Shown here in pieces: positions 1-48,258 of a stretch of 64,000 nt of DNA. The notes below the pieces were generated by a model that was not told the DNA's origin, did no database searches, and saw nothing but the letters and a program-made list of their open reading frames with translations. Source of the DNA: Mobula hypostoma (lineage: Eukaryota); NCBI RefSeq assembly GCF_963921235.1, contig NC_086108.1, forward strand, positions 43,898,001 to 43,962,000, read 5' to 3'. A program made the translations under genes and the position numbers. The stretch's first letter is position 1. Each line of letters opens with the position of its first letter.

Positions 1-2120
1 TGGAATACTTTTATCCTCAATATATATTTTGAACTCATTGTGGATTGATTCTCTGTTGATATTTGTTTTTAACTTTTTATAAACGAGAATCTCTTCATAA
101 ACTTTTCCATTTTTGATAAATTGTACATATGCCATTAGCAATGCCTTGTTGTCTCGCACAGTTGACTCATCCAGTTGTATCCCAAATTCTGTTTTTTGTA
201 GCTCTGTGCATAGTTGATGGTTTTACTCATTTCAGCAATACAATGAGCTACAGAGTTATTAGAGGAATTGATTTTAAAATATTAGTATCCATTTTGACAA
301 CAGTGGTGAGTACTTTTGATACAGCAGGCATTATTAATCTTTCACCAATTGTATGAGATCTTCCACACTTTGCTATCATTTTGGAAATGTAATAGTCATA
401 GTCATACTTTATTAATCCCGGGGGAAATTGGCTCAACGGCTCCATAAATAATAAATAGCAATAGAACCATAAATAATTAAATAGTAGTATGTAAATTATG
501 CCAATAAATTATGAAATAAGTCCAGGACCAGCCTATTGGCTCAGGCTGTTTGACCCTCCAAGGGAGGAGTTGTAAAGTTTGATGGCCGCAGGCAGGAATG
601 ACTTCCTATGACGCTCAGTGCTGCATCTCGGTGGAATGAGTCTCTGGCTGAATGTACTCCTGTGCCCACCCAGTACATTATGTAGTGGATAGGAGACATT
701 GACCAAGATTGTATGCAACTTAGACAGCATCCTCTTTTCAGACACCACCGTGAGAGAGTCCAGTTCCATCCCCACAACGTCACTGGCCTTACGAATGAGT
801 TTGTTGATTCTGTTGGTGTCTGCCACCCTCAGCCTGCTGCCCCAGCACACAACAGCAAACATGATAGCACTGGCCACCACAGACTCGTAGAACATCCTCA
901 GCATCGTCCGGCAGATGTTAAAGGACTCAGTCTCCTCAGGAAATAGAGACGGCTCTGACCCTTCTTTGAAACCACTATCAAGGTTATTTTTGGCTTTCTT
1001 GGCAAATGACTTGAAATGTGCAATACTTTTCAAATGCTTCTTTCATTATCTGGAACTGAGTAATACCATAAGTAGCCTTTTCAGGGTGTCTTTTACAGAA
1101 GTGTTCCTGCAACCTTGATGGTTTCATGGCTTCATTAGTATTATAAATAAGATACATGGGGTGTCGCTGATCTGACAGGAACAGTATAAACCCATACATG
1201 AGGTATGTAACTTTGTACTGATGCACTTTCTGTAGTTTCTGTTTCTTAGCAGGATTAGAATTCAAGGCTTCACTGTCTTCAAACTCGCAGAGATTGCACC
1301 ATACGTATTTATCCATCAGTAGAAGGGGCTAAGATAAAATAAAAGATTAGCACAAGCTGGGAATGCCTATCAGATGCTGACAATGGTAGTGAGTTGACAC
1401 AGATGGAGCGATGGTAGCAGCCTCCAAAGGAATGGTGAGGCAAAGATGAAGACAATCACAACAGGGAAAATTACATTCACAAGAATTCTGTTTGGAATCT
1501 GAATGTTAGTCGGGATAGAGCTAGAGTTCGGCAAGCTACCTTTATACTATTCCGGTTAGCATGACTGACCAATCACATAACGTCTCATAATCCCCATAGA
1601 TGGTTCTTGACCGCACATATGAAGCCGAAGTCGCTTTGAGCACCTCAGGAGGAGTCCTTGGGGTCCGCAGGTTCACTAATTGCTTCTATTTCACCATTTG
1701 GTTCTGACCAGCACTGTATCGTTGCATGACTTGTTTTCTGTAGATCTGTAGGGAAAGTTAAGAGGATGTACTTGACTTACCAACCATTAAAATGCACGAA
1801 CATGTCCTTTGCCGCAAGTTGAAGGGAACTGTTGGGCACGCTAGATGCTCTTTTATGCATTCCCAATAATGTCTGTTTGGTTGGTAAGGTCAGATGAGAT
1901 TGCTGAGCTTCAGACGTGTTGTGACAACAAGTGCCCACTGCCTGTGGCTCTTCCTGTGTTCCAGTGCCTCATCCTTTTTCTTGGAATTGCCTACTCTACT
2001 AAATCAGTCGGGTCTCATGTTTTCGTAGGTTGCCGCCTACCACCTCCAAGAATCTTGAATGCCTTCCGACGACTTCTATTTCCTCTAATGCCCCTGTAGG
2101 ACACATAACCACCCCCAAAA
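1..2120 (-). mobile_element. hAT (Charlie/Buster-like) DNA transposon remnant, interrupted by a Rex1/Babar LINE; runs off the window
   Basis: Peptides YGFILF...EAMKPSRLQEHF (984-1316) and IAKCGRSHTIGERLIMPA (248-390) are Buster/ZBED5-type transposase. Subterminal region resembles 34700-35250. Confidence 0.8.
392..968 (-). mobile_element. Rex1/Babar-type LINE, 5'-truncated 3' end
   Basis: RT C-terminal peptide MLRMFYESVVASAIMFAVVCWG...RKSFLPAAIKLYNSS and AATAAAG(TATGAC)n tail; near-identical to 36866-37450 and 56600-57170. Confidence 0.85.
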
Positions 2121-2124
2121 CACG

Positions 2125-3265
2125 AAATTTCTTCTCTTTAACCCATTTTGTTGTTGGCTTACTCCTGTGTTTCAATCATTGTCTTGTTGCATCATCCAAC
2201 TTCTCTTAAGCTTCAGGTGACAGACGGCAATCCTGCCATTCTCCTTTAAAAGGTCTTGATACAATTTTGAAATCATTGTTTCCTCAAATATTGCAAGCTG
2301 AGGCAGCAAAGCAGCCCCAAACCATGATGCTCCTTCCACCATTCTTCACAGTTGGGATGAGGTTTTAGTGCTGGTGTACAGTGACCTCTTTCCCCAAACA
2401 TTTCTGTTGAAAAGTTCAACTATTCTCTCATCTGTCCACAGAACATTGTCTCAGAAGTGTTGTAGAACATCCAAGTGGTCTTTTGCAAACTTGAGACGTG
2501 CAGCAATGTTTTTTTTTTGGAGAACAGTGGTTTCCTCCATGGTATCCTTTCATGAACACCATTCTTGTCCAGTGTCTTTGTTATAGGGGGCACATGAACA
2601 GAGACTTTAGCAAGTTCTAGAGATCTCTGCAGATCTTTTGCTGTTACCTTTGGGTTCTTTTTCACCTCCTTCAGCACTGCATGTTGTGTTCCTGGTGTGA
2701 TCTTAGTAGGATGCCCACTCCTAGGGAGTGTAGCAATAGAACTGAATTTCCTCTATTCGTAGACAATTCCTCTTTCTGAGGACTGATGAACAATCAGGTC
2801 ATTAAAAATGTTTTTGTAGCCTTTTCCAGCTTCATGCATTTCTCCAATTCATCTTCTAAGGTCCTCTGAAAGTTGTTTTGATCAAGGGATGGTGCACATA
2901 AACTGATCTTTCTTAAGAGCAGGCTCTGTCAGTAACCCGCTTTTGTGTGTCTTTCTTTATAGGGCAGGACACCTCTACAACCCACATCTTCAATCTCATC
3001 TCATTGAATGGATCACCTGACACCAAATAGCTTTTATAGAAAGCATTACTCCAGAGGTTCACATACTTTTTTGAACCTAGACTGCGACTGTTTAAATGGT
3101 GTACTCAGTATTGACAAGAAGTACAATTGTTTGTGTGTTATTAGTTTAGGCACATTGCACTTGTCTATAATTGTGACCTAGATGAAGATCATACCACATT
3201 TTGTAAGTAATTAATGCAGAAAATCAGGTAATTGCAAAGGGTTCACAAACCTTTTCTTGCAACTG
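2125..3265 (-). mobile_element. Tc1-like transposon, 3'-truncated and decayed
   Basis: Terminus TA|CAGTTGCAAGAAAAG on the minus strand at 3265; transposase remnants LKEVKKNPKVTAKDLQRSL and WMMQQDND. Confidence 0.85.
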
Positions 3266-3395
3266 TACATAGATCGGATCTCCACTGGAAATATGAAATA
3301 ACATTAACTAGTTCTGATTTCTGATATAAAAATGATAAATAAAGAACAATTGTTCTATGTTCAGATGAATTCCTGACATATACCTAATGACTTAC

Positions 3396-3520
3396 CCAAA
3401 TGGATCTCCTACTACAAGAAAAGCAATGTCATTATCAACAGCATGCCTCAAAATTTCATCAGCATCTTGTTCAACCATCTCTCTCTCTGCAATGATGAGT
3501 TCACGACCATAAAACTCCTC
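3396..3520 (-). CDS. DPH5: DPH5 second coding exon (125 nt, [42 protein letters not shown])
   Basis: Manual minus-strand translation continues DPH5 in frame and includes the [10 protein letters not shown] motif. Acceptor ttcattgtag at 3530-3521, donor GTAAG at 3395. Not in the ORF track. Remaining exons lie left of the window. Confidence 0.96.
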
Positions 3521-4056
3521 CTACAATGAAAGGGAACATAATTAATATTTAAGTATGATTTTCCCATTCATATAGTTGGGTTTATAATGGTAATTGTAAG
3601 GGACAATATTTAATCATCAGTCTGTCTCTTTTGTTTGCCAATGAGCCTGTTTTTCTGAGCTGATAACTCAAATGCATTCAGTTGCTAAAGGTTTTCTTTT
3701 CCACCACAATGTGAACAAAATCATTATTTTTAAATTTTACCTATAAAATGTTATAATGAAAGATGAAACAAGAAGCCAAAGTTCTGCTCTGGAGATTGAT
3801 GCTAATTAAACAATTAAACAATCTTTTCTGCTCTTTTAACATAACAACTTCAAGGCATTTCTCTTTAAACTCAAAAACACTAGAATCAACAACTTACCAG
3901 AACTGCACTTCTAATCTGGCTAATAGCAAATTAGTTCACAGCAGCAAAAGCATACCTAAAACCATTTATGGTTTTATGGTACACTATTTGCTATTTTAAC
4001 TGGGCTACAGATAAAATTCAAAGTATTTTTGTACTATGCAAAGTGGTTATTTATGT

Positions 4057-4837
4057 AACATACATCAAAGTTGCTGGTGAACGCAGCAGGCCAAGCAGCA
4101 TCTATAGGAAGAGGTGCAGTCGACGTTTCAGGCCGAGACCCTTCGTCAGGACTAACTGAAGGAAGAGTGAGTAAGGGATTTGAAAGTTGGAGGGGGAGGG
4201 GGAGATGCAAAATGATAGGAGAAGACAGGAGGGGGAGGGATAGAGCCGAGAGCTGGACAGGTGATAGGCAAAAGGGGATACGAGAGGATCATGGGACAGG
4301 AGGTCCGGGAAGAAAGACAAGTGGGGGGGGGGGGGTTGACCCAGAGGATGGGCGAGAGGTATATTCAGAGGGACAGAGGGAGAAAAAGGAGAGTGAGAGA
4401 AAGAATGTGTGCATAAAAATGAGTAACAGATGGGGTACGAGGGGAAGGTGGGGCATTAGCGGAAGTTAGAGAAGTCGATGTTCATGCCATCAGGTTGGAG
4501 GCTACCCAGACGGAATATAAGGTGTTGTTCCTTCAACCTGAGTGTGGCTTCATCTTTACAGTAGAGGAGGCCGTGGATAGACATGTCAGAATGGGAATGG
4601 GATGTGGAATTAAAATGTGTGGCCACTGGAAGATCCTGCTTTCTCTGGCGGACAGAGCGTAGATGTTCAGCAAAGCGGTCTCCCAGTCTGCGTCGGGTCT
4701 CACCAATATATAAAAGGCCACATCGGGAGCACCGGACGCAGTATATCACCCCAGTCGACTCACAGGTGAAGTGATGCCTCACCTGGAAGGACTGTTTGGG
4801 GCCCTGAATGGTGGTAACGGAGGAAGTGTAAGGGCAT
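4057..4837 (-). mobile_element. Penelope-like element, 5'-truncated (GIY-YIG endonuclease plus tail with hammerhead)
   Basis: ORF 4456-4782 contains VIYCVRCSRCGLLYIGETRRRLGDRFAEH (GIY-YIG). Flanked by direct repeat GTTATTTATGT (4046-4056 / 4838-4848). Highly similar to 43345-44120. Confidence 0.92.
4118..4153 (-). ncRNA. Minimal type-I hammerhead ribozyme motif, intact core
   Basis: Minus strand reads AGUC-CUGACGA-A-GGGU-CUCG-GCCU-GAAAC-GUC-GACU: stem I AGUC/GACU, CUGANGA and GAAA cores, stem II, palindromic ACGU stem III, GUC cleavage triplet. Confidence 0.82.
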
Positions 4838-5349
4838 GTTATTTATGTGTTTTCTCTCAGAATAAATTAGGTTTCCAGCATTCCTAGCAAGTCTACAACC
4901 TAACAACAAATGCCTGCTCTATCTTACAAAGATCAGCCACAGCACTGGTAGAGTTAACAACTCCACTTGAGAGATCAGACTGCAGTAATATTTGAAGTTT
5001 TTAAAGACTAATCTCAAACAGCATAACTGTAGCAGAATATTAAAACCAAAGTAGCCAGAGAAACCCAATGCATACTTAATAAGATGTTATTTTTTTAACA
5101 GGGTTCATGGGATATAATCAGTGAATGGAAACATGACTGATATTCACTAATACATAGTAGTTGGGATGATTAATAATACAGTTGTTTTTTTTACTTTGAA
5201 CAGCTAATGAGTATCTTTTCTATCAGAATAGGTAATGTAAATATTGTTGAGCTTCATAGCATAGGACCATACTATCTACCAACCTAAATAATGATGGAAA
5301 CTTCGGAATAGTTTTGATAAATTTTGTTCTCTAATTAGCAATGGCAGAA

Positions 5350-7140
5350 AGGAGCAAACATAGCCAAAGTGGTTTGTTATCTTCTCAAGGTCAAAGCGGG
5401 GGGGGGGGGGAGGGGGGGATTTATGCATAAAGACAATGCAGTGGGTGAGGTACTTCACATTAGTACTGTATTGACCAAGGGAAGGATCGGGTTGATAGTG
5501 AAATTAGGAACTGGCTTGTTAATGTTCGATGGCAAGTCAACATTTAAGGAAGAGGTGTAAGCTGTCTTGAAAAACATTAAGGTGGAAAAGTTTTCAGGGT
5601 ATGATGGGACCTATCCTAGGATCTGAGGAGAGAATGGGAGCTTGGTGGAGATCTTTGTATCCTCTTTAGCCACAGGCAGGGTCCCATAATTCTGGAGACA
5701 GACAATGTTATTCCTTTGTCTAAGTAAAGCAAAAGAGACATCCCAGGAAATGATGGGTTGGTGAGGCTTACATCAGTGGTATAGAGATTTTTGGAGCAGA
5801 TTCTTAAGGATAGAATTTACTCACATTTGGAAAAGGATAATTTATAACCTGCTTGGCTTTGTGAAGGAGAGGTCCTCTCTCACAATCTGATTGAGTTTAT
5901 TTTGTGGATGCGACAAAGATAATTGATGAGGGTAGGGTATTGAAACCAGCCTCTGCTCCATTAACTCTGTGTATGCTTCCCTCTGCCTTGGGAAAGTAGG
6001 CAACATAATCAAAAATTCCTTACATGATGGTCATTCTCTCATCTCCCTCCTTCCGTTGGACATAAATTACAAGAGCTTGAAAACACACACCACCAAGCTC
6101 AAGGATACATTCACAAGACTGTTGAACTCAGATTCTCTTGTACAATAAAGATAAATTCTAAATCTTTCAATCTATCTTTCCTTGGGTCCCATACCTTATT
6201 GCCTATCTGCACTGTACTTTGTTCTGTAAATGTAATACTATATTCTGCATTTTGTTATGGTTTTTCCCTCTGTATTACTTCAATGCACTTATGTTTTGAA
6301 ATGATTTGTTTGGATGAAATGAAATTTTTTTTCACTGTACCTCGTTTTGTGTGACAATAGTAAACAAATTACCAAACTGGTTCAATTAGAGATGACAGGG
6401 TGTAGTCTTAGAAGGGTGCTTTTGTGACTGGAAGCCTGTTACAGTGATGTTTCTCACAGATGAGTTCTGTGCACTCTTTGTGGCTAACCTCAGTGACCAC
6501 TTTATTAGAATCACCTGTATACTAGCTCATTAATGCAAATATCTAATCAGCCAATCATGTGGCAGCAACTCAATGCATAAAAGCATGCTGGCATGGTCAA
6601 GAGGTTCAGTTGTTGCTCACGCCAAAGATCAGAATGGGGAAGAAGTGTGATCCAAGTGACCTTGAGAGTGGAATGACCTCCTGGAATTTTGATGCATAAC
6701 AGTCTCTGAAGTTTACAGAAAATGGTGAGAAAAACAAAAAATGTCCAGTATGTGTTGTTAATGAGAAAAGTGAGAGGAGAATGGCCAGATTGGATCAAGC
6801 TGACAGAAAGATGACGATAACTCCAATAACTATGTGTTACAACAGTGGTATACAAAAGAGCATCTCTGGACTCACAACATGATGAACCCTGCAATGGATG
6901 GCTCCAGCTGAAGACCATGGTATATACTCAGTGGCCATGTTATTAAATACTGGAGGTACCTATTAAAGTGGTGACTAAGTCTGTACAATTGATTTGAATG
7001 AAAATGTAGATGGACAGATTAGAACATCTGAAAATGATACAAAAATTGCTGAAATTTTGGATGGTGGTAAACATTGTCAAAGGATACAGTAAAATATCGA
7101 TGGTTAGGAAGAAGTGACAGATAGAATTTAATCCAGACAA
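5350..7140 (+). mobile_element. Old CR1 LINE fragments interrupted by a Rex-like 3' end (about 5945-6375) and a Tc1-derived element
   Basis: Decayed CR1 ORF2-like sequence (e.g. aggtcctctctcacaatctgattgagttt); boundaries approximate. Confidence 0.55.
6488..6985. mobile_element. Tc1-derived non-autonomous element (MITE-like)
   Basis: Imperfect inverted termini ctcagtgaccactttattag ... ctattaaagtggtgactaagt; internal Tc1-like leader sequence. Confidence 0.6.
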
Positions 7141-7959
7141 ACCATGCTGCTACACAGCAGTAATTTATTTGACCGTGGTTGCAAAGAACACTGAAGTAAA
7201 ATCAGAGTGTTAAACTAGTTAAAAGTGAAATAAGTGGAACTTTCCTTGAAATCGAGGCTTCAAAGAGCTTCAGTAAAATTGAAAGCAAGGCGATATCTCT
7301 GCATTGGTTAGTCATACCATACACAAAGGGAGATGGTTACATTTTTGAGTGACCAATTTTGTGAGCCCTGGATACTGCTGCATGGACCTAAAGGCAACTA
7401 ATAAAATTATTTTTTCAGTGCTTAATCAACTATTTTCCTATATAAACCTGTATAAAGCTACACCTCATGTCAACCACTATGCCTCCATCAACTTCCCAGT
7501 CAACTCCTTAAAAATCTCAATCAGAGTTGAGAGACATGATCACATTGCACAAAACCTGACAGGTCCCAGTCTTTTCAGATGATCATATATTCTGTCACTC
7601 AGAATTTTCTCCCAGTTTCCTTACTACCGATGCAAGGCTCACTGACCTTAGGTTTCCAAACTAATGAGACTACATTAGTTATCTACAACATTAGTTAGTC
7701 TTCTGGTACATCACTCATGGTTAACAAAGGTGCTAAAAGCTTCATTGGCAATCTCCTAACTTGCTTCCATTAACATCTTGTAATTAACCCCATCATATAA
7801 ATTTCCTGTACCTGATGTACATTTTCTTCTTTTCCTTGATCTAATCTTCAATATTCATTCGCTAACCTAGGGTTCCAAAACTTAACATCTCTACTTCTTA
7901 CTCTTACAGGAGCCTTCCAAATCTGAATGCTGTTCCATTTTCAAGCAACTACTTCTCAC

Positions 7960-10900
7960 ATGTTCACATCCAAGGATACACATTGTATCAAAAGGATAGG
8001 CAGGTAGGCAGAGGAGGTGGGGAAGCTCTGTTGGTAAAAAAAAAGAGAAACCAAATCCTAAGAAAGAGGTGGCATAGGATCAGAAGATGCAGAATCCTTG
8101 CAGGCAGAGTTAAGAAACTTCAAGTGAAAAAAGACTGTGATGGGAGGTACATATAGGCCTCCGAGCAGCAGCCAGGTGGTGGAATTCAAATTCTGATGGG
8201 AGATAAAGGCATGTAAAAAGGCTTCACTTCCAGATGAGCTCCATGCCTTCTATGCTCTCGTTGGCTGTCAAAACATGGAGGAACCTTCATGAACTCCGAC
8301 AGCCCACATCCTTCAGGAGGGTGAACCCACGGAAAGCACCCAGCCCAGACGGGGTACCTGGCTGAGTACTTACGACCTGTACTCATCAACTGGCTGGAGT
8401 GTTCACTGAGATCTTTCACCTCTCACTTCGGCAGTCTGAGGCACCCACCTGCTTCAAGCAGGCTTCAATTGTACCGGTGTCTAAGAACTTGGTTACCTAC
8501 CTCAATGGCTATCGTCCAGTAGCACTTGCATCCACTGTGATGAAGTGCTTTGAGAGGTTGGTGATGAAACATATCAACTCTTGCCTGAGAAGTGATTTGG
8601 ATCCACTCCAACTTGACTACTGACACAACAGGTCCACAGCAGATGCCATTTAATTGGCTCTGCAATCAACCAGGGAACATCTGGACAGCAAACATGCGTA
8701 TATCAGGATGCTCTTTATCGTCTACAGCTCAACATTTCATACTATCATCCCCTCAGAACTAATCAGTAAGCTTCAAGACCTTGCCCTCAATACCTCCTTG
8801 TACAATTGGATCCTCGATTTCCTCACTTGCAAACTCCAGTCAGTTCAGATTGGCAACAACTCCTCCACAATCTCCATCATCACAGGTGCACAAGACTGTG
8901 TGGTTAGCCCCCTGCTCTACTCGCTTTATACTTATGCCTATGAGGCTAAGCATAGCTACAATGCTGTATTTAAGTTTGCTTATGATACCACAATCATTGG
9001 ACAAATCAAAGGTGGTGATGAATCAGCACATAGGTGGGAGACTGAAATCCGGCTAAGTGGTGCCACAATAACAACCTCTCTCTCAATCTCTGCAAAACCA
9101 AGAAAGTGATTATTGACTTTAGGAGGAGGAAACTGGAGGTCCATGAGCGGGTCCTCATTGGGGGATCAGAGGTGGAGAGAGTCAGCAACTTCAATTTCCT
9201 CTGTTTATCATTTCAGATGACCTGTCCTAGGCTCAGCAGGTGAGAGCAATTATGAAGAAAGCAGGGCAGTGCCTCTACTTGACAGCATCTATACTGACGG
9301 GCTGCATCACAGCCTGGTACGGAAACACCAATGCCCCTGAATGGAAAAGCCTACAAAAAGTAGTGGATGAGGCTCAATCCATCATGGGTAAAGCCCTCCC
9401 AGCCACCAGGTTCAAGAACTGTTATTACCCTTCAACCACCAGGCCCTTGAACAAGAGGAGATAGCATCACTCACCCCATCACTGAACTGTTCCCACTAAC
9501 TATGGGCTCACTTTCAAGGACTCTTCATCTCATGTTCTCTATACTGATTGCTTATTTATTATTTTTTCCTCCTTTATATTTGTACAGTTTGCTGTCTTTT
9601 GCGCATGGTGGTTGTTTGTTCTTCCTGCAGGGTGTGGTCTTTCATTCATTTTATTGTATTTCTTGCATTTACTGTGTATGCTCGCAAGAAAATGAATCTC
9701 AGGATTGTACACAGTGACGTATATATACTTTAATAATAAACTTACTTTGAACTTTGGAAGGGCAATGTTATTATAGTCCTGGAGGATTTCAATATACAGG
9801 TAGACTGGGAAAACCAAGCTGGATCCCAAGAGAGGGAACTTGTAGAATGCCTCTGAGATGACTTTTTAGAATAGCTTGTAATAGGGAAAAGGCAATTCTG
9901 GAATGGGTATTGTGTAATGAATGAGCTATGGTTAGAACTTAGGAGGCGGTGATAAAATTATAGAATTCACCCAGTTTCAGAGGGAGAAGATAAAGTCAGA
10001 CGTATCAGTATTACAGTGGAGTAAAGTGAATTACAGACCCATGAGAGAGGAGCTAGCCAAAGCTCACTAAGGAGATACTATTAGGGATGACAGATCAGCA
10101 ATGGCGTCAGTTTCTGAGGGTAATCTGAAAGGTGCAGGATAGATACATCCCAAAGATGAAGTATTCTAAAGGGAGCATGAGGAAACCTAATAAGCGTTTT
10201 GCATCAATCCTAACTGTGGAAAACACTAACAGTATGACAGAAATTGGAATGTGATAGGCAGAAGTGAATGTAATTGCTATTACTAAGGAGGAGGTGCTTG
10301 GGAAGCTGAATGGTCAGCTGGACCAGACCCCAATGAGGTAACTGAAGAGATTGTAGTGGCATTAGAAATGATCTTTTAAGAATCACTAGATTCTGGAATG
10401 GTTCCTGAAGACTAGAAAATTGCAACTGTCACTTCACTCTTTAAGAGAGAGAGGCAGAAGAAAGGAAATTATAAGCCAGTTAGTCTGAGCTCAATGGTTG
10501 GGAAGATATTGGAGTCGATTGTTAAGGATAAGGTTACAGGGTACTTGGAGGCACATGATAAAATAGGGTCAAGTCGGCATGATTTCCTTTAGGGGAAATC
10601 TTACCTGACAAATCTGTTGGAATTCTTTGAGGAAATAACAGGCAAGATAGACCAAGGAGTCAATGGATGTTGTTTACCTGGATTTTCTGGCCTTTGACCA
10701 TGAGGCTACTTAATAAGAGCCCATGGTATTACAGGAAAGATCCTATCATGGATAGAAGAGCAGCTGACTGGCAGGAAGGAGGCAAGGTGTGGGAATAAAG
10801 GGGGTCTACTTTGATTGGCTGCCAGTGACTAGTGGTGTTCCACAGGGTTCAGTATTGGAACTGCTTCTTTTCGTTATACGTTAATGATTTGGATGATGGA

Positions 10901-11800
10901 ATGACGGAATGATGGTTTTGTAGCCAGGTTTGAAGATGATACAAAGATAGGTGAAGGGACAGGTTGTGTTGAGGAAGCTGGGAGAATTCAGAAGTGTTTG
11001 AACAGACTGGGAGAATGGGCACAGATAGCAGACATAGTGTAGGGAAATTTATCACCATGCACTTTGGTAGAAGGAATAATGGCCTAAACTATGTTCTAAG
11101 CAGGGAGAAAATTCAAAAATCAGAGGTGCAAGGAACTTAGGAGTTCCTGTGCTGGATTCCCTAAAGGTTAACTAGCAAGTGAATCAGTGGTAAGGAAGAC
11201 AAATGCAATGCTGGTATTCATTTCGACAGGACTAGAATATAACAGCAAGGATGTAATGCCAAGGCTTTATTAGGCATTGGTCAGACCACAGAAACGAATA
11301 TTGTGAGCAGTTCTGGGCACCTTATTTAAGAAAATTTGTGTTGGCCTTGTTGAGGGTCCAGAGAATTAAGAATGATTCTGAGAATGAAAGGGTTAATTTA
11401 TGAGTGTCTGATGGCTCTAGGCCTATACTTGCTGGAATTTAGACAAATAGAGCAGGAGGTATCTCACTGAAAACTATCCAGTACTGAAAGGCCTAAACAG
11501 AGTGGATGTGGAGATGATGTTTCCCATAGTGGGTGAGTCTTGGACCAGAGGGCCCAGCCTCAGAATACAGGGATGTCCATTTAAAACAGCGATGAGGAGT
11601 AATTTCATTAGCCAGAGGGTAGTGAATCTGTGGAATTCATTGCCATAGACAGTTGTGGAGGACAGGCCATTGAGTATAAGATGGCTGTAGATAGGTTCTT
11701 GATTAGTCAGGGCATCAAAGGTTATGGGGAGAAGGCAGGAGGGATAATAAATCAGCCATTATTAGAGCAGAGTCAATGTCCAATTCTGTTCCTATGTCTA
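7960..11800 (+). mobile_element. CR1 LINE (EN-RT remnant to 3' UTR), split by a Rex1/Babar insertion at about 8220-9756
   Basis: CR1 ORF2-type sequence (gacaaatctgttggaattctttgagga, gatgatacaaagatagg); endonuclease region resumes at 9757. Confidence 0.75.
8220..9756 (+). mobile_element. Rex1/Babar-type LINE remnant (second family)
   Basis: RT peptides [41 protein letters not shown]; tail aataaacttactttgaactttg. Confidence 0.8.
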
Positions 11801-12772
11801 ATCATCTTGTTTTTTCACCCCTCATAGTACTTGTTCACCATCTACTTCCTCCAGGTCCTATCTCGTGGGCCCTTACCTTTTTCCATCATTATCTTTTAAG
11901 CTTACTGACTATATTCCTCGTGTTTGTGTACTGACTATATTCATTGTTTCTCTACATACTCTTCTATCACTTGTACATTCTCATTCTCCAAAATAAAATC
12001 AACTAACTGCCCCTTCCCTGGAAGAAATTTTAAATGTTGCAATTGTATTAGCCTCTACTGGCCTATTTAGCACCATGTTCCAGATAACCATCACTCTGGA
12101 TTAAAATCTTACAAACAAAACCCTTTTAGATGCATCTTACAAACTCCATCCCATCTAAAATCTGTGCACTATGCTAATCCCAGTCCATACTGAGAAAGTT
12201 AAAAATCCCACCACAAAATCTGGACACTATGATTTTACACCTTTTTGCATTCTGTAGACCAGAGTCCACCCATCCCCATACGAGTGTCATCCCCTACAGC
12301 GAGTTTCCTGTAACCACATCTTTGCCACCTTTATTACCTTAAAAGACACGAGACACTTTGGGATACGACTTGGAAATGTATTACCATCCCTTGATCATTG
12401 CTAAAGCAAAATCCTCCTACTTCCTGCCCAAATTAACCGAATACGATCACTCAACACGTGGACTGCAGAAGTTCAAACAGGCCTTTGCTACTCAGAAAAT
12501 AACGGATACTGGTGAATATTTTAATCTATCACCAGTCCGTCCCCTTTCCCACATCAAGCATGCAGTTCTGTGATAAACTAGAATGCAATATAGCTATCGC
12601 TGTTTTACAGAATAAAATGCAAAGCTATCTTTATCATTTGATTTCGGGGGGGGGGTGAAGGGGAGTCGCTGAGACGTTTATAATATAGGAGTAAAACTTT
12701 GCACATAGGAACCCGACTTTCTGAACGTAGTTCTGTTTGAAACGGCCGTGCTGCCGCTGCCGCTCCACGTAC

Positions 12773-12907
12773 CAACACGTCTCTGCCGACACAGAGGAGC
12801 GAGGTATAAGCCTCCAAGTAGACCCGGCTGCATTGCTTTACGATCTCCAGTCCTTTCACCGTGATGTCCCGGGCGTCCCCCAATCCCAAACCGATTAAAA
12901 ACAACAT
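12773..12907 (-). CDS. DPH5: Diphthine methyl ester synthase, first coding exon (135 nt, [45 protein letters not shown])
   Basis: Translation matches the conserved DPH5 N-terminus ([21 protein letters not shown]...VYLEAYTS). ATG at 12907-12905; phase-0 GT donor (GTACGT) at 12772. Confidence 0.96.
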
Positions 12908-14822: not shown

Positions 14823-15042
14823 TAACAGATAAAATGCTGGAGGAAATTCGTAGGTCAGGCAGAGAGAAATTCCCACTTTTAAATCTCTTACTAGCTCTTT
14901 CTTCAGTTAGTCCTGACGAAGGGTCAGGAAACGTCAACTGTGCCTCTTCCTAGAGATGCTGCCCGGCCTGCTGCGTTCACCCGCAACTTTGGTGTGTGTT
15001 GCTTGAATTTCCAGCATCTGCAGAATTCCTTGTGTTTGCATT
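14823..15042 (+). mobile_element. Penelope-like tail fragment with damaged hammerhead (14909-14939), preceded by a short inverted tail piece
   Basis: ttcagttagtcctgacgaagggtcaggaaacgtcaactg followed by the family tail gatgctgcccggcctgctgcgttcacc...ccagcatctgcagaattcc. Confidence 0.75.
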
Positions 15043-15616: not shown

Positions 15617-16455
15617 TGTGACAAAAGAACCAGTTATCAGAAGATTGATGCCGTTAAGAGGACAATGGGGGAACATGCAAGGTGCTAATAAGAGAGAGAT
15701 GAGAGAGATTACCGAAAGGAGACACGGTTCCGAGTATTGTCAGAGACCGGTGGCTTTGAACCCTGAACTGTTTGAAGTTTGATGGACAGGCGATACCCCA
15801 GCAGGGGGATAAAAAGGGACAGGTTCGCTAAAGCAACAGACACACTACACCACGAGGTAACGAGACCCTGGAAGCGGTGTGCCCCCACAAGTTGCTGGGA
15901 GTTTTGGAGGTCTGGTCGCGGGACCAGCCATAGATGCACAGGGTAGAAAGATACGGTCGGGCGGGAACCCGGTGTGTGTGTCCGCCCTTGCCTGGGTGCC
16001 AGGTTCACCGCAGAAGAACGATCGTATCTGGAACGGAGGGGTCACAATCAGAACACATTACAAAGGGCTCGCCCGAAAGCTAACTGCGAGGAATAGCGAA
16101 GGTCTGTGTGGAATCCGTTTTGAATATTCATTCGCTTTCGCTCTCTTTCTTCTCCCCGCCCCAACGGCACAACAGTGATTACTGTGAACTGAACTGAACT
16201 CAATTGAACTGAACTTTGCGTCACTTGAAACTGGTCATTTACCCCTAGACTGCGATAGAGCTTGATTGATCCTATTATCCTAGTTCTGTGTACGTGTGTG
16301 TTTTATCATTGCTAAACTGTTGCATTTATATCCTCTTGATTAGAGTACTGTGTTACTTATTTCTTTAATAAAACTTTCTTAGTTTCAGTAATCCAGACTC
16401 CAACTAAGTGCTCCATTTCTGCTGGTTTGGCAACCCAGTTACGGGGTACGTAACA
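15617..16455 (+). mobile_element. Solo LTR (family A)
   Basis: TGTGAC...GTAACA termini, 4-bp TSD CTAC (15613-15616 / 16456-16459), AATAAA near the 3' end; near-identical to 31408-32256. Confidence 0.9.
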
Positions 16456-18229: not shown

Positions 18230-20740
18230 AGGTAATAATAATAACATTACAGTGGCACAGGCAATAAACAGAGAAATACCTGAGGCATGTAAGAATGGAA
18301 CAGCAGTTATCGTGGGGGACTTTAACTTGTACATGGATTGGGTGAATCAAGTTGGTTGAGGCAGTCTTGAGAAGGACTTCATAGAATGCATCCGTGATGG
18401 CTTTCTTGAACAGCATGTTACTGAACTTACAAGGGAACCTCCTATATTAGATCTGGTCCTGTGCAATGAGACAGGTAAAATTAGTGATCTTGTAGGTAGG
18501 GATCCTCTTGGAAAGAGTGATCACAGTATGATTGAGTTTCTCATACAAATACAGGGTGCAATAGTTTCAAAACGTTTCAATATTTCAATCTAAAACCAAT
18601 GTATTATGCCTAAACAATGGAGGCAACAATGGGATGAGGGAGGATTTGGCTAGTGTAGACTGGGAACACAGGATATATGGTGAGACGTTGAGGAAGACTT
18701 TCAAAGAGATTTTCCGACAAAAGTATATTCTAGTTAAAAGCAAGGACAGTAGGAGTGGGGAGAGCCAGCCTTGGATAACTAAGGAAATAAAAGAAGACAT
18801 CAAATTATAAGCGTGTGCATACAAAGTCGCCAAGAATAGTGGGAAACTGGAAGATTGGGAAAACTTTAAAGAGCAACAAAGAACCACTAAGCAAGCAATA
18901 AAGAAAGGGAAACTAGATTATAAAAATAAACTAGCACAAAATATAAAAACAGATAGTTTTTATAATTATATAAAGTGGAAAAGTGTGGCTAAAGTGAACA
19001 CAGGTGCTTTGAAGGAAGAGAAGGGGGAATTGATATTGGGTAATGAGGAAATGACAGAGGTTTTGGAATGACTATCTTGTGTCGGTCTTCATGGTGGAGG
19101 ATATGTCTAACATGCCATAGAGAAATGTTATAGATGCAATGGAAAGTGAGGACCTCGATGCAATAGCTATCACTAAAGAGGTAGTGCTGAGCAAACTTGT
19201 GGGCCTGAAGATAGACAAGTCCCCTGGTCCTGAAGGAATGCAGCCCAGTGTACTGAAAGAAATGGTAGAAGTTATAGTAGAGACTTTGGTCATAATTTAC
19301 CAAAATTCTCTGGACTCTGGACGGGTCCCAGCGGATTGGAAGACAGCAAATGTTATGCCACTATTCAAAAAAAGATCTAGGCCAAAGGCAGGTAACTATA
19401 GGCCAAGCAACACACATCAAAGTTGCTGGTGAACGCAGCAGGCCAGGCAGCATCTCTAGGAAGAGGTACAGTCGAGACCCTTCGACAGGACTAACTGAAA
19501 GAAGAGATAGTAAGAGATTTGAAAGCGGGAGGGGGAGGGGGAGATCCGAAATGATAGGAGAAGACAGGACTGACGAAGGGTCTCGGCCCGAAACGTCGAC
19601 TATACCTCTTCCTAGAGATGCTGCCTTCACCAGCAACTTTGATGTGTGTTGCTTAAATTTCCAGCATTTGCAGAATTCTTCGTGTTTGAGTAACTATAGG
19701 CCAGTTAGTTGGGAAAATGTTTGAAGCTATCATTGAAGAAGAAATAGCGAGGATCTGGAAAGAAATGGATCCATCAGGCAGACACATGGAAGAAGGGACT
19801 GAGTGCAGTGTGTCCAAGTTTGCTGATGATACTAAATTGACTGGAAAAGCAAATTGCGCAGAAGATAAGGGGAGTCTGCAGGGAGATATAGATCGGTTAA
19901 GTGAGTGGGCAAGGATTTGGCAGATGGAGTACAACATTGGTAAATGCAAGGACATCCACTTTGGACGGAAAAATGAAAAATCGGATTATTATTTAAATGG
20001 TAAAAAATTGCAGCATGCTGCTTTGCAGAGGGACTTGAGAGTGCTTGTGCATGAATCAGAAAAAGTTGGTTTGCAGGTGCAGCAGGCTATCAAGAAGGCA
20101 AATGGAATGTTGGTCATTGCTAGAGGGATTGAACTTAAGAGCAGGGAGGTTATGCTGCAGCTGTACAGGGTACTGGTTAGGCTGCACCTGGAGTACTGCG
20201 TGCAGTTCTGGTCTCCTTACTTGAGGAACGATATACTGGCTTTGGAGGCAGTGCAGAGGATATTCCCCAGGTGGATTCCAGAGATGAGGGGGTTAGACTA
20301 TGAGGAGAGATTGAGTCGCCTGGGACTGTACTCAATGGAATTCAGTAAAATGAGAGGAGATATACATATACATATACAATTATGAAAGGCATAGATAAGA
20401 TAGAGGCAGGAAAGTTGTTTCCATTGGTAGGTGAGACTAAAACTAGGGGACATAGCCTCAAGATTCAGGGGAGTAGATTTAGGACGGAGATGAGGAGAAA
20501 CTTTTTCACAGACAGTAGTGAATATGTGGAATTCTCTGCCCAATGAAGCAGTGAAGGCTACCTCAGTAAATATATTTAAGACAAGGTTGGATAGATTTTT
20601 GCATAATAGGGGAATTAAGGGTTATGGGAAAAAGGCAAGTTGGTGTAAATGAGTCTGTGGCCAGAGATCTTATTGAATGACGGAGCAGGCTCGACGGGCC
20701 AGATGGCCTACTCCTGCTCCTATTTCTTATGTTCTTATCA
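18230..20740 (+). mobile_element. CR1 LINE with internal deletions, hosting an inverted Penelope-tail insertion
   Basis: Peptides KSPGPEGMQPSVLKE, DWKTANVMPLFKK, SKFADDTKL, LEYCVQFWSPY; 3' tail tatttcttatgttctta. Confidence 0.88.
19406..19689. mobile_element. Non-coding inverted (tail-only) Penelope-like insertion with two hammerhead remnants
   Basis: 19406-19569 is the family tail on the minus strand; 19570-19689 is the tail on the plus strand starting at CTGACGA. 14-bp TSD GTAACTATAGGCCA (19392-19405 / 19690-19703). Confidence 0.88.
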
Positions 20741-31407: not shown

Positions 31408-32256
31408 TGTGACAAAAGAACCAGTTATCAGAAGATTGATGCCGATAAGAGGACAATGGGGGAACATGCAAGGTGCTAATAAGAGAGAGACGAGAGAGAT
31501 TACCGAAAGGAAACACGGTTCCGAGTATTGTCAGAGACCGGTGGCTTTGAACCCTGAACTGATTGAAGTTTGATGGACAGGCGATACCCCAGCAGGGGGA
31601 TAAAAAGGGACAGGGACGCTAAGGCAACAGACACACGACTCTACGAGGTAACGAGACCCTGGAAGCGGTGTACCCCCACAAGTTGGTGGGAGTTTTTTTG
31701 AGGTCTGGTCGCGGGACCAGCCATAGACGCACAGGGTAGAAAGATACGGTCGGCGGGAACCCGGTGTGTGTGTTCGCCCTTGCCTGGGTGCCAGGTTCAC
31801 CGCAGAAGAATGATCGTATCTGGAACGGAGGGGTCACAGTCGGTGACCTCAGAAGACATTACAAAGGGCTCGCCCGAAAGCTAACTACGAGGAATATCTA
31901 AGGTCTATGTGGAATCTGTTTTGAATATTCATTCGCTTTCGCTCTCTCTCTTCTCCCCGCCCCAACGGCACAACAGTGATTACTGTGAACTGAACTGAAC
32001 TCAATTGAACTGAACTTTGCGTCACTTGAAACTGGTCATTTACCCCTAGACTGCGATAGAGCTTGATTGATCCTATTATCCTAGTTCTGTGTACATGTGT
32101 GTTTTATCATTGCTAAACTGTTGCATTTATATCCTTTTGATTAGAGAACTGTGTTACTTATTTCTTTAATAAAACTCTCTTAGTTCCAGTAATCCAGACT
32201 CCAACTAAGTGGTCCATTTCTGCTGGTTTGGCAACCCAGTTATGGGGTACGTAACA
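31408..32256 (+). mobile_element. Solo LTR (family A, second copy)
   Basis: TGTGAC...GTAACA termini, 4-bp TSD ACAT (31404-31407 / 32257-32260). Confidence 0.9.
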
Positions 32257-39628: not shown

Positions 39629-40587
39629 ACCAGAGGCACCAGAGGGGAGGCGTTGAGCTAAAAATGGTTGGGAAACACTGATTTAGAGGATGAACTAAAT
39701 ACCAATTTTTGCCAATAGTGGGCTGCTGGAGGCCAGCAGGAGGAGTCCACATTTTGCTGCTTTGACAACCTCTAGGAGTCCATAAAAGTTGATCATTAGC
39801 TAAGTTGGGTGGTAGACATTGTACCTTTTTCACCTTTGTTTTTTATTTGGAATAATTCCTGGAGTGATAGCTTTTAGTTATGTCTTAGACTTCACTAATT
39901 TCTTAGAGTCAATTTCGTCTCCCAATTCTTCCTTCGTATAAGATCATTATAATCCACTTAGTGATGTTTCATGCCATCTAGTACTTAACAGTTTACTGAT
40001 AGCTTATCTGCTTCAAAAAAACTTTATTTAAAAACTCCATTAAAAGAATCCACCCCCATAAAATTTACTTGGAAGTTAATGGGTGTTCAATCACTAGTGG
40101 CCATGGGTTTTTGTTTTGTGCTTGATGTATGCTGATCATGTGACCATAAGAAATGTAAATAAGAATTTACATAGCCCTTTGAACTTTTCTGCCATTCAGT
40201 AAGATTACAACTAATATGATTTTTGGACAAAGGTGCATAAAAATACGCCCACATATTCCTTATATCAATGAACATAAAGGACATTAGTTCTCTTAACTGT
40301 GTTGTGGATTGCAGACATGGTTGTGATTTAAAATTACTCATTTAATGTATGAAGTTACAATATTGTGTATTTGCATTGCTGCACTTCAAACCAACATAGA
40401 AATACAGCATCATCAATGTGTGTGTATATACATACATGTGTACGTCAATTTTGGGATAACTTGACAGGATCAATTGAGAAAAATAAGTTGGCTTTAAATC
40501 TAATTTCCAGAATTTCAAGTTGCAATTTTTAAAAAAATGTTCAATTAATTATCACGGAGAGGTCAGGAGACAGCGAGCGATAAAGTG

Positions 40588-40688
40588 ACACACATAAAAA
40601 TTGCTGGTGAACGCAGCAGGCCAGGCATCATCTATAGGAAGAGGTACAGTCGACGTTTCGGCCGAAACCCTTCATCAGGGTTAACTGG
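40588..40688 (-). mobile_element. Penelope-like tail fragment with hammerhead core (40648-40682)
   Basis: Minus strand AACC-CUGAUGA-AGGGUUUCGGCC-GAAAC-GUC-GACU followed by the family tail. Confidence 0.75.
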
Positions 40689-41001
40689 ACCTTAAATTGA
40701 CCTTGGATTAATGAGGGAATACTTCTGTAATGATTGGAAAAAGTTTTGAAATTATCTAATTGGACCAGTTGTCTGTTTTGAAAATAGCTGAATCCACATT
40801 AATGGGTTGGTAGACACTCCTGCTTCTGAAGATAAGGTTGTGGGTTTGAGATTCTGAGCACATCGTCCAAGGTGACGTATTCTGCATGACTGAGAAAGAG
40901 CTGCACTGTTGGAGATACCGTCATTCTCAGAGGTGATGCTGAAATAACATGTTCGATTGCAAAACCGTGTGAACGATAAAGTCCTCATTTTTATTTGTAA
41001 T
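40689..41001 (+). repeat. 313-bp direct duplication, copy 1 (contains a decayed SINE-like segment)
   Basis: Near-identical to 44712-45024 (accttaaattgaccttgg...cctcatttttatttgtaat). Confidence 0.9.
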
Positions 41002-41972: not shown

Positions 41973-44120
41973 CACCTCTACCTTGCCGAGGCACAGCGAC
42001 AACTCGCGGATACCTCCTCTTATTTACCCCTCGATAGTGACCCCACTAAGGAGCACCAGGCCATTGTCTCCCACACCATCACTGACTTTATCCGCTCAGG
42101 GGATCTCCCATCCACTGCTACCAACCTTATAGTTCCCACACCCCGCACTTCCCGGTTCTACCTCCTACCCAAGATCCACAAACCTGCCTGTCCTGGCCGA
42201 CCTATTGTCTCAGCTTGCTCCTGCCCCACCGAACTCGTTTCTGCATACCTCGACACGGTTTTATCACCCCTTGTTCAATCCCTTCCGACCTATGTTCGTG
42301 ACACTTCTCATGCTCTTAAACTTTTCGATGTTTTAAGTTCCCTGGCCCCCACCGCTTTATTTTCACCATGGATGTCCAGTCCTCATATACTTCCATCCCC
42401 CATCAGGATGGTCTCAAAGCTCTACGCCTCTTTTTGGATTCCAGACCTAATCAGTTCCCCTCTACCACGACTCTGCTCCGTCTAGCGGAATTAGTCCTTA
42501 CTCTTAATAATTTCTCCTTTGGCTCCTCCCACTTCCTCCAAACTAAAGGTGTAGCTATGGGCACCCGTATGGGTCCTAGCTATGCCTGCCTTTTTGTTGG
42601 GTTTGTGGAACAATCCATGTTCCGTGCCTATTCTGGTATCTGTCCCCCACTTTTCCTTCGCTACATCGACGACTGCATTGGCGCTGCTTCCTGCACGCAT
42701 GCAGAACTCGTTGACTTTATTAACTTTGCCTCCAACTTTCACCCTGCCCTCAAGTTTACCTGGTCCATTTCCGACACCTCCCTCCCCTTTCTAGATCTTT
42801 CTGTCTCTGTCTCTGGAGACAGCTTATCCACTGATGTCTACTATAAGCCTACTGACTCTCACAGCTATCTGGACTATTCCTCTTCTCACCCTGTCTCTTG
42901 CAAAAACGCCATCCCCTTCTGGCAATTCCAACGTCTCCGCCGCATCTGCTCTCAGGATGAGGCTTTTCATTCTAGGACGAGGGAGATGTCTTCCTTTTTT
43001 AAAGAAAGGGGCTTCCCTTCCTCCACTATCAACTCTGCTCTTAAACGCATCTCCCCCATTTCACGTACATCTGCTCTCACTCCATCCTCCCGCCACCCCA
43101 CTAGGAATAGGTTTCCCCTGGTCCTCACCTACCACCCCACCAGCCTCCGGGTCCAACATATTATTCTCCGTAACTTCTGCCACCTCCAACGGGATCCCAC
43201 CACTAAGTACATCTTTCCCTCCCCCCACCCCCCGCTTTCCACAGAGATCGCTCCCTACACGACTCCCTTGTCCATTCGTCCCCCCCATCCCTCCCCACTG
43301 ATCTCCCTCCTGGCACTTATCTGTGTAAGCGGAACAAGTGCTACACATGCCCTTACACTTCCTCCCTTACCACCATTCAGGGCCCCAAACAGTCCTTCCA
43401 GGTGAGGCAACACTTCACCTGTGAGTCAACTGGGGTGATATACTGCGTCCGGTGCTCCCGATGTGGCCTTTTATATATTGGCGAGACCCGACGCAGACTG
43501 GGAGACCGCTTTGCTGAACATCCACACTCTGTCCGCCAGAGAAAGCAGGATCTCCCAGTGGCCATACATTTTAATTCCACATCCCATTCCCATTCTGACA
43601 TGTCTATCCACGGCCTCCTCTACTGTAAAGATGAAGCCACACTCAGGTTGGAGGAACAACACCTTATATTCCGTCTGGGTAGCCTCCGACCTGATGGCTT
43701 GAACATCGACTTCTCTAACTTCCGCTAAGGCCCCACCTCCCCCTCGTACCCCATCTGTTACTTATTTTTATGCACACATTCTTTCTCTCACTCTCCTTTT
43801 TCTCCCTCTGTCCCTCTGAACATACCTCTTGCCCATCCTTTGGGTCCCCCCCCCTTGTCTTTCTTCCCGGACCTCCTGTCCCATGATCCTCTCGTATCCC
43901 CTTTTGCCTATCACCTGTCCAGCTCTTGGCTCCATCCCTCCCCCTCCTGTCTTCTCCTATCATTTTGGATCTCCCCCTCCCCCTCCAACTTTCAAATCCC
44001 TTACTCACTCTTCCTTCAGTTAGTCCTGACGAAGGGTCTCGGCCTGAAATGTTGACTGCACCTCTTCCTACAGATGCTGCCTGGCCTGTTGCGTTCACCA
44101 GCAACTTTGATGTGTGTTGC
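41973..44120 (+). mobile_element. Penelope-like element (RT plus Cys-rich linker plus GIY-YIG; probably Neptune-like), 5'-truncated, two frameshifts
   Basis: FYLLPKIHK, GRPIVS, DVQSSYTSIP, GVAMG, RYIDD, LPFLDL, linker CKRNKCYTC, VIYCVRCSRCGLLYIGET; TSD TTAACA (41967-41972 / 44121-44126). Confidence 0.93.
44022..44057 (+). ncRNA. Minimal hammerhead motif with two CpG-type transitions
   Basis: AGUC-CUGACGA-AGGGUCUCGGCCU-GAAAU-GUU-GACU. Confidence 0.68.
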
Positions 44121-44711: not shown

Positions 44712-45024
44712 ACCTTAAATTGACCTTGGATTAATGAGGGAATACTTTTGTAATGATTGGAAAAAGTTTTGAAATTACCTAATTAGACCAGTTGTCTGTT
44801 TTGAAAATAGCTAAATCCACATTAATGGGTTGGTAGACACTCCTGCTTCTGAAGATAAGGTTGTGATTTTGAGATTCTGAGCACATCGTCCAAGGTGACG
44901 TATTCTGCACGACTGAGAAAGAGCTGCACTGTTGGAGATACCGTCATTCTCAGAGGTGACGCTGAAATAACATGTTCGATTGCAAAACCGTGTGAACGAT
45001 AAAGTCCTCATTTTTATTTGTAAT
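44712..45024 (+). repeat. 313-bp direct duplication, copy 2
   Basis: Near-identical to 40689-41001 with a handful of substitutions. Confidence 0.9.
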
Positions 45025-46585: not shown

Positions 46586-48258
46586 TGTCTTATTTTTACG
46601 ATGAATGTCCAGTCCCTGTACTCCTCCATCCCCCACCAAGAAGGCCTCAAAGCTTTCCATTTCTTCCTGGACACCAGACCCAAATAGTTCCCCTCCTCTG
46701 CCTAGCGGAACTTGTCCTCACTCTAAATAATTTCTTCTTTGGCTCCTCCCACTTCCTTCAAATAAAAGTGGGAGCCATGGGCACTCACATGGGTCCCAGC
46801 TATGCATGCCTATTTGTTGGCTACGTGGAACAGTTTTTGTTCCAAGCCTACATTCCTATCCCGCTCTTTTCCTACATTACATTGAGGACTGCATTGGTGC
46901 TGCTTCCTGCACCCGTGCTGAACTTGTCGATTTCATCCACTTTGCCTCCAACTTCCACCCTGCCCTCAAATTCACCTGGTCCATTTCCGACACTTCCCTT
47001 CTCTTTCTCGATCTCACTGTCTCTATCTCCGGAGACAGCTGATCCACTGATGTCTATTATAAACGAACAAACTCTCACAGCTACCTGGACTATACTTCCT
47101 CCCACCCTGCTACTCATAAAAACGCCGTCCTCTTCTCTCAAATCCTCTGTCTCTGCTGCATCTGCTCTCAGGATGAGGCTTTTCATTCTCGAACGTAGGA
47201 GGTACCCTCCTTTTTCAAAGAAAGGGGTTTCCTTCCTCTACCATTAATGCTGCCCTCAACCACATCTCTTCCATTTCCCGCACGTCTACTCTTGCCCCAT
47301 CCTCCCACCACCCTACCAGGGATAGGCTTCCTCTTGTCCTCACCTACATACCACCAGCCTCTACATCCAGCACATAATTCTCCAATATTTCCGCCACCTC
47401 CGACAGGATCCCACCACCAAGCACATCTTTCCCTCTCCCCCCCCACCCACTTTCTGCTTTCCACAGGGATCGCTCCCTACGCGACACCCTTGTCCATTCG
47501 TCCCTCCTCACTGATCTCCCTCCTGGCCCTTATTCTTGCAAGCAGAACAAGTGCTACACCTGCCCCTACACCTCTTCCCTCACTACCATTCAGGGCCCCA
47601 AATAGTCCTTCCAGGTGAGGCGACACTTTGCCTGTGAGTCTGTTGGGGTTATGTACTGTGTTTGGTGCTCCCTGTGAGGCCTTGTGAGACCTGATGTGGA
47701 TTGGGAGACCGCTTTGCCGAGCATCTACGCTTTGACCACCAGAACAAGCAGGATCTCCCAGTGGCGACCCATTTTAATTCCATTCCCATTCCAATATGTC
47801 ATCCCTGGCCTCCTTCACTATCGTGACGAGGTAACATTTAGGTTGGAGGAACAACAACATGTTCCATTTGGGTTGCCTCAACCTGATGGCATGAACGTCA
47901 ATTTCTCAAATTTCTCATCGATTCCAGTATTTCCCATCCCCTTTCCACTCATGTTATCTCCTTGCCTGCCCATCACCTCCCTCTGGTACTCCTTCCCCCC
48001 ACCCCACACCATTTTTTTCCCTTTCATGGCCTTCTGTCTCTTTCACCAATCAACTTCCCAGCTCTCTACTTCGTCCCTCCCCCTCCAAGTTTCACCTGTC
48101 ACCTGGTATTTCTCTCTCCCCTTCCCTGATCTTTCAAATCTATTCCTCAGCTTTATTTTCTCCAGTCCTGGCGAAGGGTCTTGGCCTGAAACGTCGACTG
48201 TGCTTTTTTCCGTAGATGCTGCCTGGCCTGCTGAGTTCCTCCAGCACTTTGTGTGTTG
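46586..48258 (+). mobile_element. Older Penelope-like element (RT-GIY-YIG remnant plus tail with mutated hammerhead at 48163-48200)
   Basis: Colinear degenerate similarity to 42355-44100 (GAMGTHMGPSYACLFVG, FASNFHPALKFTWSISD). Confidence 0.85.

Follow-up and report, generated by a model that had tools for sequence, protein, structure and literature searches.

Minimal type-I hammerhead ribozymes (min-HHRs) were reported in 2014 by Cervera and De la Pena in the pLTRs of metazoan Penelope-like elements (PLEs), with an extra nucleotide and a palindrome (PMC4209133). The main result of that paper, in the sections cited here, was the genome-wide presence of solitary min-HHRs left by truncated PLEs, with fish, coelacanth, frog and reptiles among the hosts. 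A min-HHR of S. mansoni showed no cleavage as a monomer and low cleavage as dimers and trimers (PMC4209133). Small hammerhead variants described by Lunse, Weinberg and Breaker in 2017 share a diminished palindromic stem III, an association with PLEs and cleavage as dimers, as summarized in the cited part of a review (PMC6765202). The Neptune clade of EN+ PLEs is characterized in the cited sections of Craig et al. (2021, PMC8557442) by an RT followed by a C-terminal GIY-YIG, a CX2-5CxxC linker, 5′ truncation, an inverted 5′ partner, an optional 30-40-bp tail and a hammerhead near the 3′ end. For the Poseidon element PAc of Anolis, the cited sections of Frangieh et al. (2024, PMC11167929) report that the hammerhead cleaved only with protein and that RNA-seq showed no ends at the position of its cut. 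Finally, Li, Clavereau and Pollet (2026, bioRxiv 10.64898/2026.07.22.740005) reported PLE-derived hammerheads of non-LTR retrozymes, together with PLEs, from a set of genomes of which one is chondrichthyan, and the part cited here gives only Neptune and Poseidon in the vertebrates sampled.

The kind of motif analyzed here has thus been known since 2014, and the idea of an abundant family of such ribozymes, which came with the original prediction for this locus, is not new. The interpretation given there is otherwise supported, with qualifications on recent mobility, intactness and novelty. We conclude that the motif very probably is a min-HHR of a PLE terminal repeat, brought into an intron of the diphthine synthase gene DPH5 by a 5′-truncated retrotransposed copy, where it would be an inert passenger.

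The hammerhead motif and its carrier element

In the window (the whole 64-kb stretch of DNA that was analyzed), a hammerhead motif of 36 bases was read on the minus strand (Table 1). The full core (CUGANGA ... GAAA N ... N U H) is present. The minus strand reads exactly as originally predicted, with all core nucleotides, the extra A and the loopless ACGU, and the predicted cleavage between 4122 and 4121 agrees with hammerhead numbering. Across the tail copies of the window, 90% of stem I cells are paired. Judged by its sequence, this is a genuine min-HHR motif, and its designation as a minimal type-I hammerhead of the dimer type matches the published consensus except for G10.1-U11.1.

Table 1 Features of the locus and of related copies in the window.
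Feature	Position	Strand	Evidence or remark
Min-HHR motif, G10.1-U11.1 variant	4118..4153	-	Descriptor match; consensus in PMC4209133 Fig S3 (part cited)
Motif stem I	4153-4150 with 4121-4118	-	5′ strand with 3′ strand; 4 Watson-Crick pairs + U.G
Motif C3-A9 core stretch	4149-4143	-	
Motif extra A	4142	-	Between A9 and 10.1
Motif stem II	4141-4138 with 4133-4130	-	4 bp: G.U, G-C, G-C, U.G
Motif loop 2	4137-4134	-	4 nt
Motif G12-A14	4129-4127	-	
Motif A15.1 C15.2 G16.2 U16.1	4126-4123	-	Palindromic ACGU, no loop 3
Motif C17	4122	-	Predicted cut 4122/4121
5′-truncated PLE, 781 bp	4057..4837	-	Linker/GIY-YIG coding end + 3′ tail (pLTR part)
C-terminal GIY-YIG endonuclease part	4456..4837	-	Open to stop, no start; PF01541 E 4.5e-05
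Pyrimidine-rich 3′ tail	4057..4455	-	Hammerhead ~60 nt before element 3′ end; loose contig ends at 4057
Target-site duplication, left copy	4046..4056	.	11 bp, AT-rich
Target-site duplication, right copy	4838..4848	.	11/11 identical
DPH5 coding exon downstream of insertion	3396..3520	-	PDB 3i4t diphthine synthase E 1.1e-07
DPH5 (diphthine synthase) host intron	3521..12772	-	GT/AG ends, in-phase exons
DPH5 first coding exon	12773..12907	-	PF00590; diphthine synthase E 1.9e-10
Short tail copy	14871..15038	+	Stem II deletion, optional ~35-nt 3′ extension
Head-to-head inverted pair of tail fragments	19406..19689	.	14-bp TSD
~100-bp tail copy	40585..40687	-	Starts just upstream of decayed motif
Longer sister copy	41973..44120	+	RT + CX4CxxC linker + GIY-YIG; frameshifted, 5′-truncated
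Older sister-subfamily copy	46590..48256	+	74-78% identity

If a repeat tail merely happened to resemble a hammerhead, this would fit the unremarkable folding energy of the motif (z -0.37), the absence of covariation among the seven tail copies of the window and the Rfam search, which up to an E value of 10 returned no hammerhead and only five chance matches. Against it, a loose core pattern matched four times in the window (mean 1.24 in shuffles, with none of 100 shuffles reaching four), and the 31-base motif with at most three mismatches also matched four times, where 0.00 were expected. The full min-HHR descriptor matched twice, at the focal motif and at a decayed copy at 44026, both of the same repeat family; only one of 200 first-order Markov windows gave a match. 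Moreover, the motif sits where published PLE hammerheads sit (PMC4209133 and PMC8557442, cited parts), and a Neptune example from Acropora digitifera has the same layout in its core, extra A and C15.2/G16.2, and a stem II that is G-rich and 4 bp long (PMC4209133). Because both position and consensus match, chance is effectively refuted and its probability negligible. A degenerate pattern of the family found no locus in metagenome and viral contigs. The expectation that standard repeat annotation would not flag such ribozymes held for Rfam, which misses this one; the element as such should presumably be picked up by a repeat library.

That the hammerhead lies in the tail of a PLE was borne out by the upstream GIY-YIG match, which is above the curated Pfam cut-off, by the target-site duplication and by the sister copy with RT and EN at 41973-44120. 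The closest proteins belong to Mobula hypostoma (93%) and to Hypanus sabinus (85%), with 11 matches among 138 candidates, which makes a myliobatiform ray the likely host. The linker is of a kind found in Neptune and Nematis, and the vertebrates sampled by Li et al. (cited part) yielded no clades other than Neptune and Poseidon; from the linker and this survey we infer that the element belongs to the Neptune clade. All the copies in the 64-kb window are 5′-truncated, and it holds no complete tandem source element (pLTR-ORF-pLTR). No tandem non-coding array of the retrozyme type was found in the window either, the focal copy being solo.

Copies of the family in the window and in sequencing runs

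The window contains seven tail copies of the family. The copy at 41973-44120 is inserted, with a 6-bp target-site duplication, in a LINE that we take to be RTE-like from the look of its protein (Pfam gives RVT_1 only). This PLE copy itself shows GIY-YIG and an RVT_1 match that falls short of the curated cut-off (E 1.6e-4), the CX4CxxC linker being read in ORF 43207-43728. It differs from the focal copy by 28 mismatches in 780 aligned columns, of which 22 are transitions, 8 in CpG context, and its motif (44022-44057) carries C15.2U and C17U. A 334-codon open frame (41481-42485, +) runs from the RT of the RTE-like LINE across the junction at 41972/41973 into the PLE and is likely in frame by chance. 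In the inverted pair at 19406-19689, the plus arm starts at C3, has G10.1-C11.1 and is devoid of the 5′ strand of stem I, and in the minus arm the motif is shortened by a deletion of 13 nt between two TCG triplets; the junction of the pair shows microhomology and falls at motif C3. The motif of the older copy at 46590-48256 (48164-48199) is identical to the focal motif at 34 of 36 bases, with A6G in the core and one change in the loop. The optional 3′ extension occurs in two of the seven copies. Only the focal copy has the core, both stems and ACGU^C all unchanged. Over nine pairs, these copies, which are few and close, show no two-sided and two one-sided changes.

Other repeats were also observed in the window. 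Another LINE family with an RT (Pfam RVT_1, E 2e-20) is present at 389-966, 36867-39028 and 55497-57173, its copies being 91-94% alike and young. Two further repeat pairs lie at 40689-41001 / 44712-45024 (97% over 313 bp) and at 15617-16455 / 31408-32256 (95% over 850 bp).

For a family-wide view, contigs from four sequencing runs (X3, X5, X9 and X19) were aligned to positions 4000-4330; the stretch or part of it is contained in 20 of the 24 runs listed. X9 is RNA by guess only, and run contigs carry no RNA ends, strand or level. On these 331 bases, 42,589 (X3), 74,716 (X5), 6,249 (X9) and 25 (X19) contigs aligned. Summed depth in X3 was 8-15 on the unique flank versus 5-6 million on the motif, contig depth not being copy number. 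The PLE family is very large in this genome, and the claim of an abundant family stands with the seven tail copies in 64 kb and the X3 contigs. Recent mobility is to be read as a divergence of a few percent, the longest copy of the window carrying frameshifts. The X9 contigs leave 4000-4035 uncovered, which was not used as evidence.

In X3, X5 and X9, loose contig ends pile up most at the two outer edges of stem I, 4117 and 4153 (among 24 rows listed, with 798 more). In X3, among the positions listed, the piles comprise 431 contigs at 4117, 483 at 4153 and 297 at the element end at 4057; in X19, loose ends at 4117 and 4153 come from five and three contigs. The consensus of the 4117 pile reads as the tail of a sister subfamily. 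The 4153 pile is heterogeneous (consensus agreement 0.38-0.47), probably because it contains both sister subfamilies and 5′ truncation points, and so gives no clean measure of conservation. As to whether the core is better kept than the flanking tail between subfamilies, the sister copy at 74-78% identity partly supports this by its 34 motif bases. The result is not a clean one, as the best 40 of 80 difference rows from the run contigs include no compensatory change on both sides of a stem. Structure-level selection is thus not demonstrated by the window copies or the contig rows.

Depth-weighted CpG transitions in X3 amount to 5.0-7.3% at G8, C15.2, G16.2 and C17 versus 7.1-9.8% at two CpG positions of loop 2; the corresponding values in X5 are 6.5-12.6% and 10.0-11.0%. 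With CpG decay at the catalytic positions close to that in the loop, daughter copies would decay roughly neutrally after insertion. The slight deficit of the core in X3 could hide weak selection or reflect a subfamily change at N7. In X9, CpG decay is about half that in X3 (2-4% versus 5-10% at most sites), in loop and core alike, which may be due to younger copies or to an assembly-depth effect.

Some contigs contain joints within the motif. A joint from 4153 to 4119, found in the DNA run X3 and in X9 at single-locus depth, is a 35-nt direct duplication of the motif and reads as a head-to-tail double hammerhead that occurs naturally at some genomic locus. Joints with an end at 4122/4123 make up four of the best 12 of 50, each in X5 only and at single-locus depth. 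We rejected these joints near the cut site as evidence of cleavage in vivo, because they come from a single run and one or more of them can be read as short duplications that have undergone CpG decay; they could stem from template switches onto cleaved RNA or from alignment breaks at a decayed CpG.

The 10.1/11.1 pair of the focal copy is G.U, in contrast to the G-C called highly conserved in min-HHRs, a point that the original prediction passes over, like the unremarkable folding energy and the predicted monomer fold. In the published consensus, G10.1-C11.1 exceeds 80% and is not invariant, and by our own count G.U occurs in 8 of the 56 examples of Fig S3, including cichlid, coelacanth, Xenopus and S. 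mansoni family 1 (PMC4209133). The variant is therefore not new; it is an accepted one and does not exclude the motif from the min-HHRs. However, the published G10.1-U11.1 examples have a stem II of 6-7 bp (PMC4209133), whereas that of the focal motif has only 4 bp, two of them wobble. By the substitution stem II loses 2.6 kcal/mol of its predicted stability (-2.5 instead of -5.1 kcal/mol), and the predicted probability of the 10.1-11.1 pair is 0.26 with U11.1 versus 0.96 with C11.1. With U11.1, an alternative register that pairs the extra A is predicted to compete (0.19 versus 0.26). Our literature search, mostly short of subscription papers, gave no rate measured on a G10.1-U11.1 motif.

U11.1 predominates in all four runs, at 55-79% of depth; the share of C11.1, which is also present in the tail copy at 19570 (G10.1-C11.1), is 23% in X3, 29% in X5, 21% in X9 and 45% in X19. 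This does not fit private CpG decay of the focal copy, as other CpG sites show 0-23% decay, with the exception of N7 in X19 (46%). Reference bias seems modest, the other private differences of the focal copy showing 82-98% of the other letter in X5. Because the share of C11.1 is far below what CpG decay alone gives, U11.1 is likely carried by the source elements.

The predicted weakening of stem II by the majority state raises the question of whether the motif is kept in source elements mainly as a non-catalytic signal, such as an RNA 5′ boundary or promoter, a protein-binding site or a landmark for reverse transcription, with little or no part for self-cleavage. The Anolis PLE hammerhead proved dispensable for insertion in vitro, where its mutants left insertion unaffected (PMC11167929, cited part), Naiads proliferate without canonical hammerheads (PMC8557442, cited part), and no pile at the cut site was seen among the loose ends listed. 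On the other hand, the catalytic positions and both stems are kept in the sister copy at 74-78% identity except for the one A6G, the variants listed at 11.1, 11.2, 11.4 and N7 are tolerated by hammerheads, and the published G.U examples speak against it as well. We regard a mainly non-catalytic role as possible, though rather unlikely; it is compatible with an inert passenger in DPH5, and the two are not mutually exclusive.

Predicted folding and the DPH5 intron

The insertion lies between two consecutive coding exons of DPH5, in an intron of 9.25 kb whose 3′ splice site follows the motif at about 600 nt, and the motif has the same orientation as the gene. This intron setting was absent from the original prediction. 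Positions 1-12907 contain no second descriptor match or tail homology on either strand, and the focal motif is thus solo in the window part of DPH5, the rest of the gene lying beyond the left end of the window.

No single motif can close stem III, because the sequence has no loop there. The predicted fold of the monomer is not a hammerhead; core G5-G8 is paired with C15.2-C17 in a rod, at -10 kcal/mol versus -6.0 kcal/mol for a hammerhead-like monomer. Other inactive hairpins are predicted when the motif is folded with 56 or 91 nt of context. Two motifs have a predicted energy of -9.5 kcal/mol as a double hammerhead, -20.0 as separate monomers and -28.3 in the best duplex. These three values come from a nearest-neighbour model, which has no tertiary or Mg2+ terms. 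The predicted inactive folding agrees with the published absence of monomer cleavage and low dimer cleavage of min-HHRs, and with the protein-assisted hammerhead of the Anolis PLE. The description of the motif as intact therefore fits its sequence and not its function, as a solo copy is likely silent and its predicted folds are inactive. If this kind of motif is catalytic at all, it would be so in tandem source elements.

The following course of events would account for these observations. In a tandem pLTR-ORF-pLTR source element, two motifs on one RNA would pair their ACGU palindromes and stem I strands, and the resulting double hammerhead would cut after C17 and trim the element RNA. Selection would act only on such tandem elements, as suggested by the loose-end piles at the motif borders and by the motif bases kept in the sister copy. 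A truncated daughter would keep one motif, unable to close stem III alone and predicted to form an inactive rod. The DPH5 pre-mRNA would then stay uncut and the focal copy would decay neutrally. We infer that a solo daughter, being silent, is therefore tolerated in the intron of a housekeeping gene.

Alternatively, the focal copy might cut the DPH5 intron with the help of a partner transcript in trans or of the element protein. Its sense orientation in a housekeeping-gene intron, the intact core bases and the complementarity of any two copies of the family in their stem I and ACGU strands would allow this, and the X9 contigs on the tail, if that run is RNA as guessed, would be consistent with it. 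However, the motif is solo in the window part of the gene, its predicted folds are inactive as a monomer, in 56- or 91-nt context and as a duplex, published rates of min-HHRs are low even in cis dimers (PMC4209133, cited part), and core positions decay family-wide. We therefore consider cutting of DPH5 by this copy very improbable, and retain the inert passenger as the preferred explanation.

A more general possibility is that the huge load of complementary, obligate-dimer hammerheads in this ray lineage makes host pre-mRNAs such as that of DPH5 cleavable as soon as another sense copy, be it in cis or in trans, provides the partner. We hold this to be very improbable. If it were true, the lack of a loop in stem III, together with the stem II weakened by the majority variant G10.1-U11.1, would act as a safety catch for spread through introns, and same-orientation intact pairs would be depleted within genes.

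Comparison with known systems

As an individual copy the focal motif matters little, since solitary min-HHRs from truncated PLEs were described in 2014. The addition is a cartilaginous-fish family, a group absent from the 56 examples of that paper (PMC4209133); our literature search, mostly short of subscription papers, found no paper on PLE hammerheads of rays or sharks. Owing to its abundance, the family lends itself well to statistical study of the role of PLE hammerheads in vivo. Usable contrasts are orientation and pairing bias in introns, insertion ends versus the cut site, and U11.1 versus C11.1 subfamilies.

The focal motif shares with the published min-HHRs the type-I form, CUGANGA with an extra H, GAAAC GUC without loop 3 and a stem I of 4-5 bp, as well as the U-rich upstream flank and the occurrence mostly as solitary copies from 5′-truncated elements (PMC4209133, cited sections). 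The palindromic reduced stem III and the PLE setting are also shared with the Lunse-type variants (PMC6765202, cited part). The window family shows all the Neptune features listed above, of which the linker is shared by Nematis too (PMC8557442, cited part); it differs in that the window contains no complete tandem element, and its placement in the clade is a putative one, made from such features. Like PAc of Anolis, it has a hammerhead in the pLTR of a vertebrate PLE and an optional 3′ tail, but PAc belongs to the Poseidon clade and its protein-assisted cleavage has been demonstrated (PMC11167929, cited part). Non-LTR retrozymes likewise carry PLE-derived type-I hammerheads (bioRxiv 10.64898/2026.07.22.740005, cited part); they are tandem non-coding arrays, whereas the focal copy is solitary, truncated and still accompanied by coding sequence.
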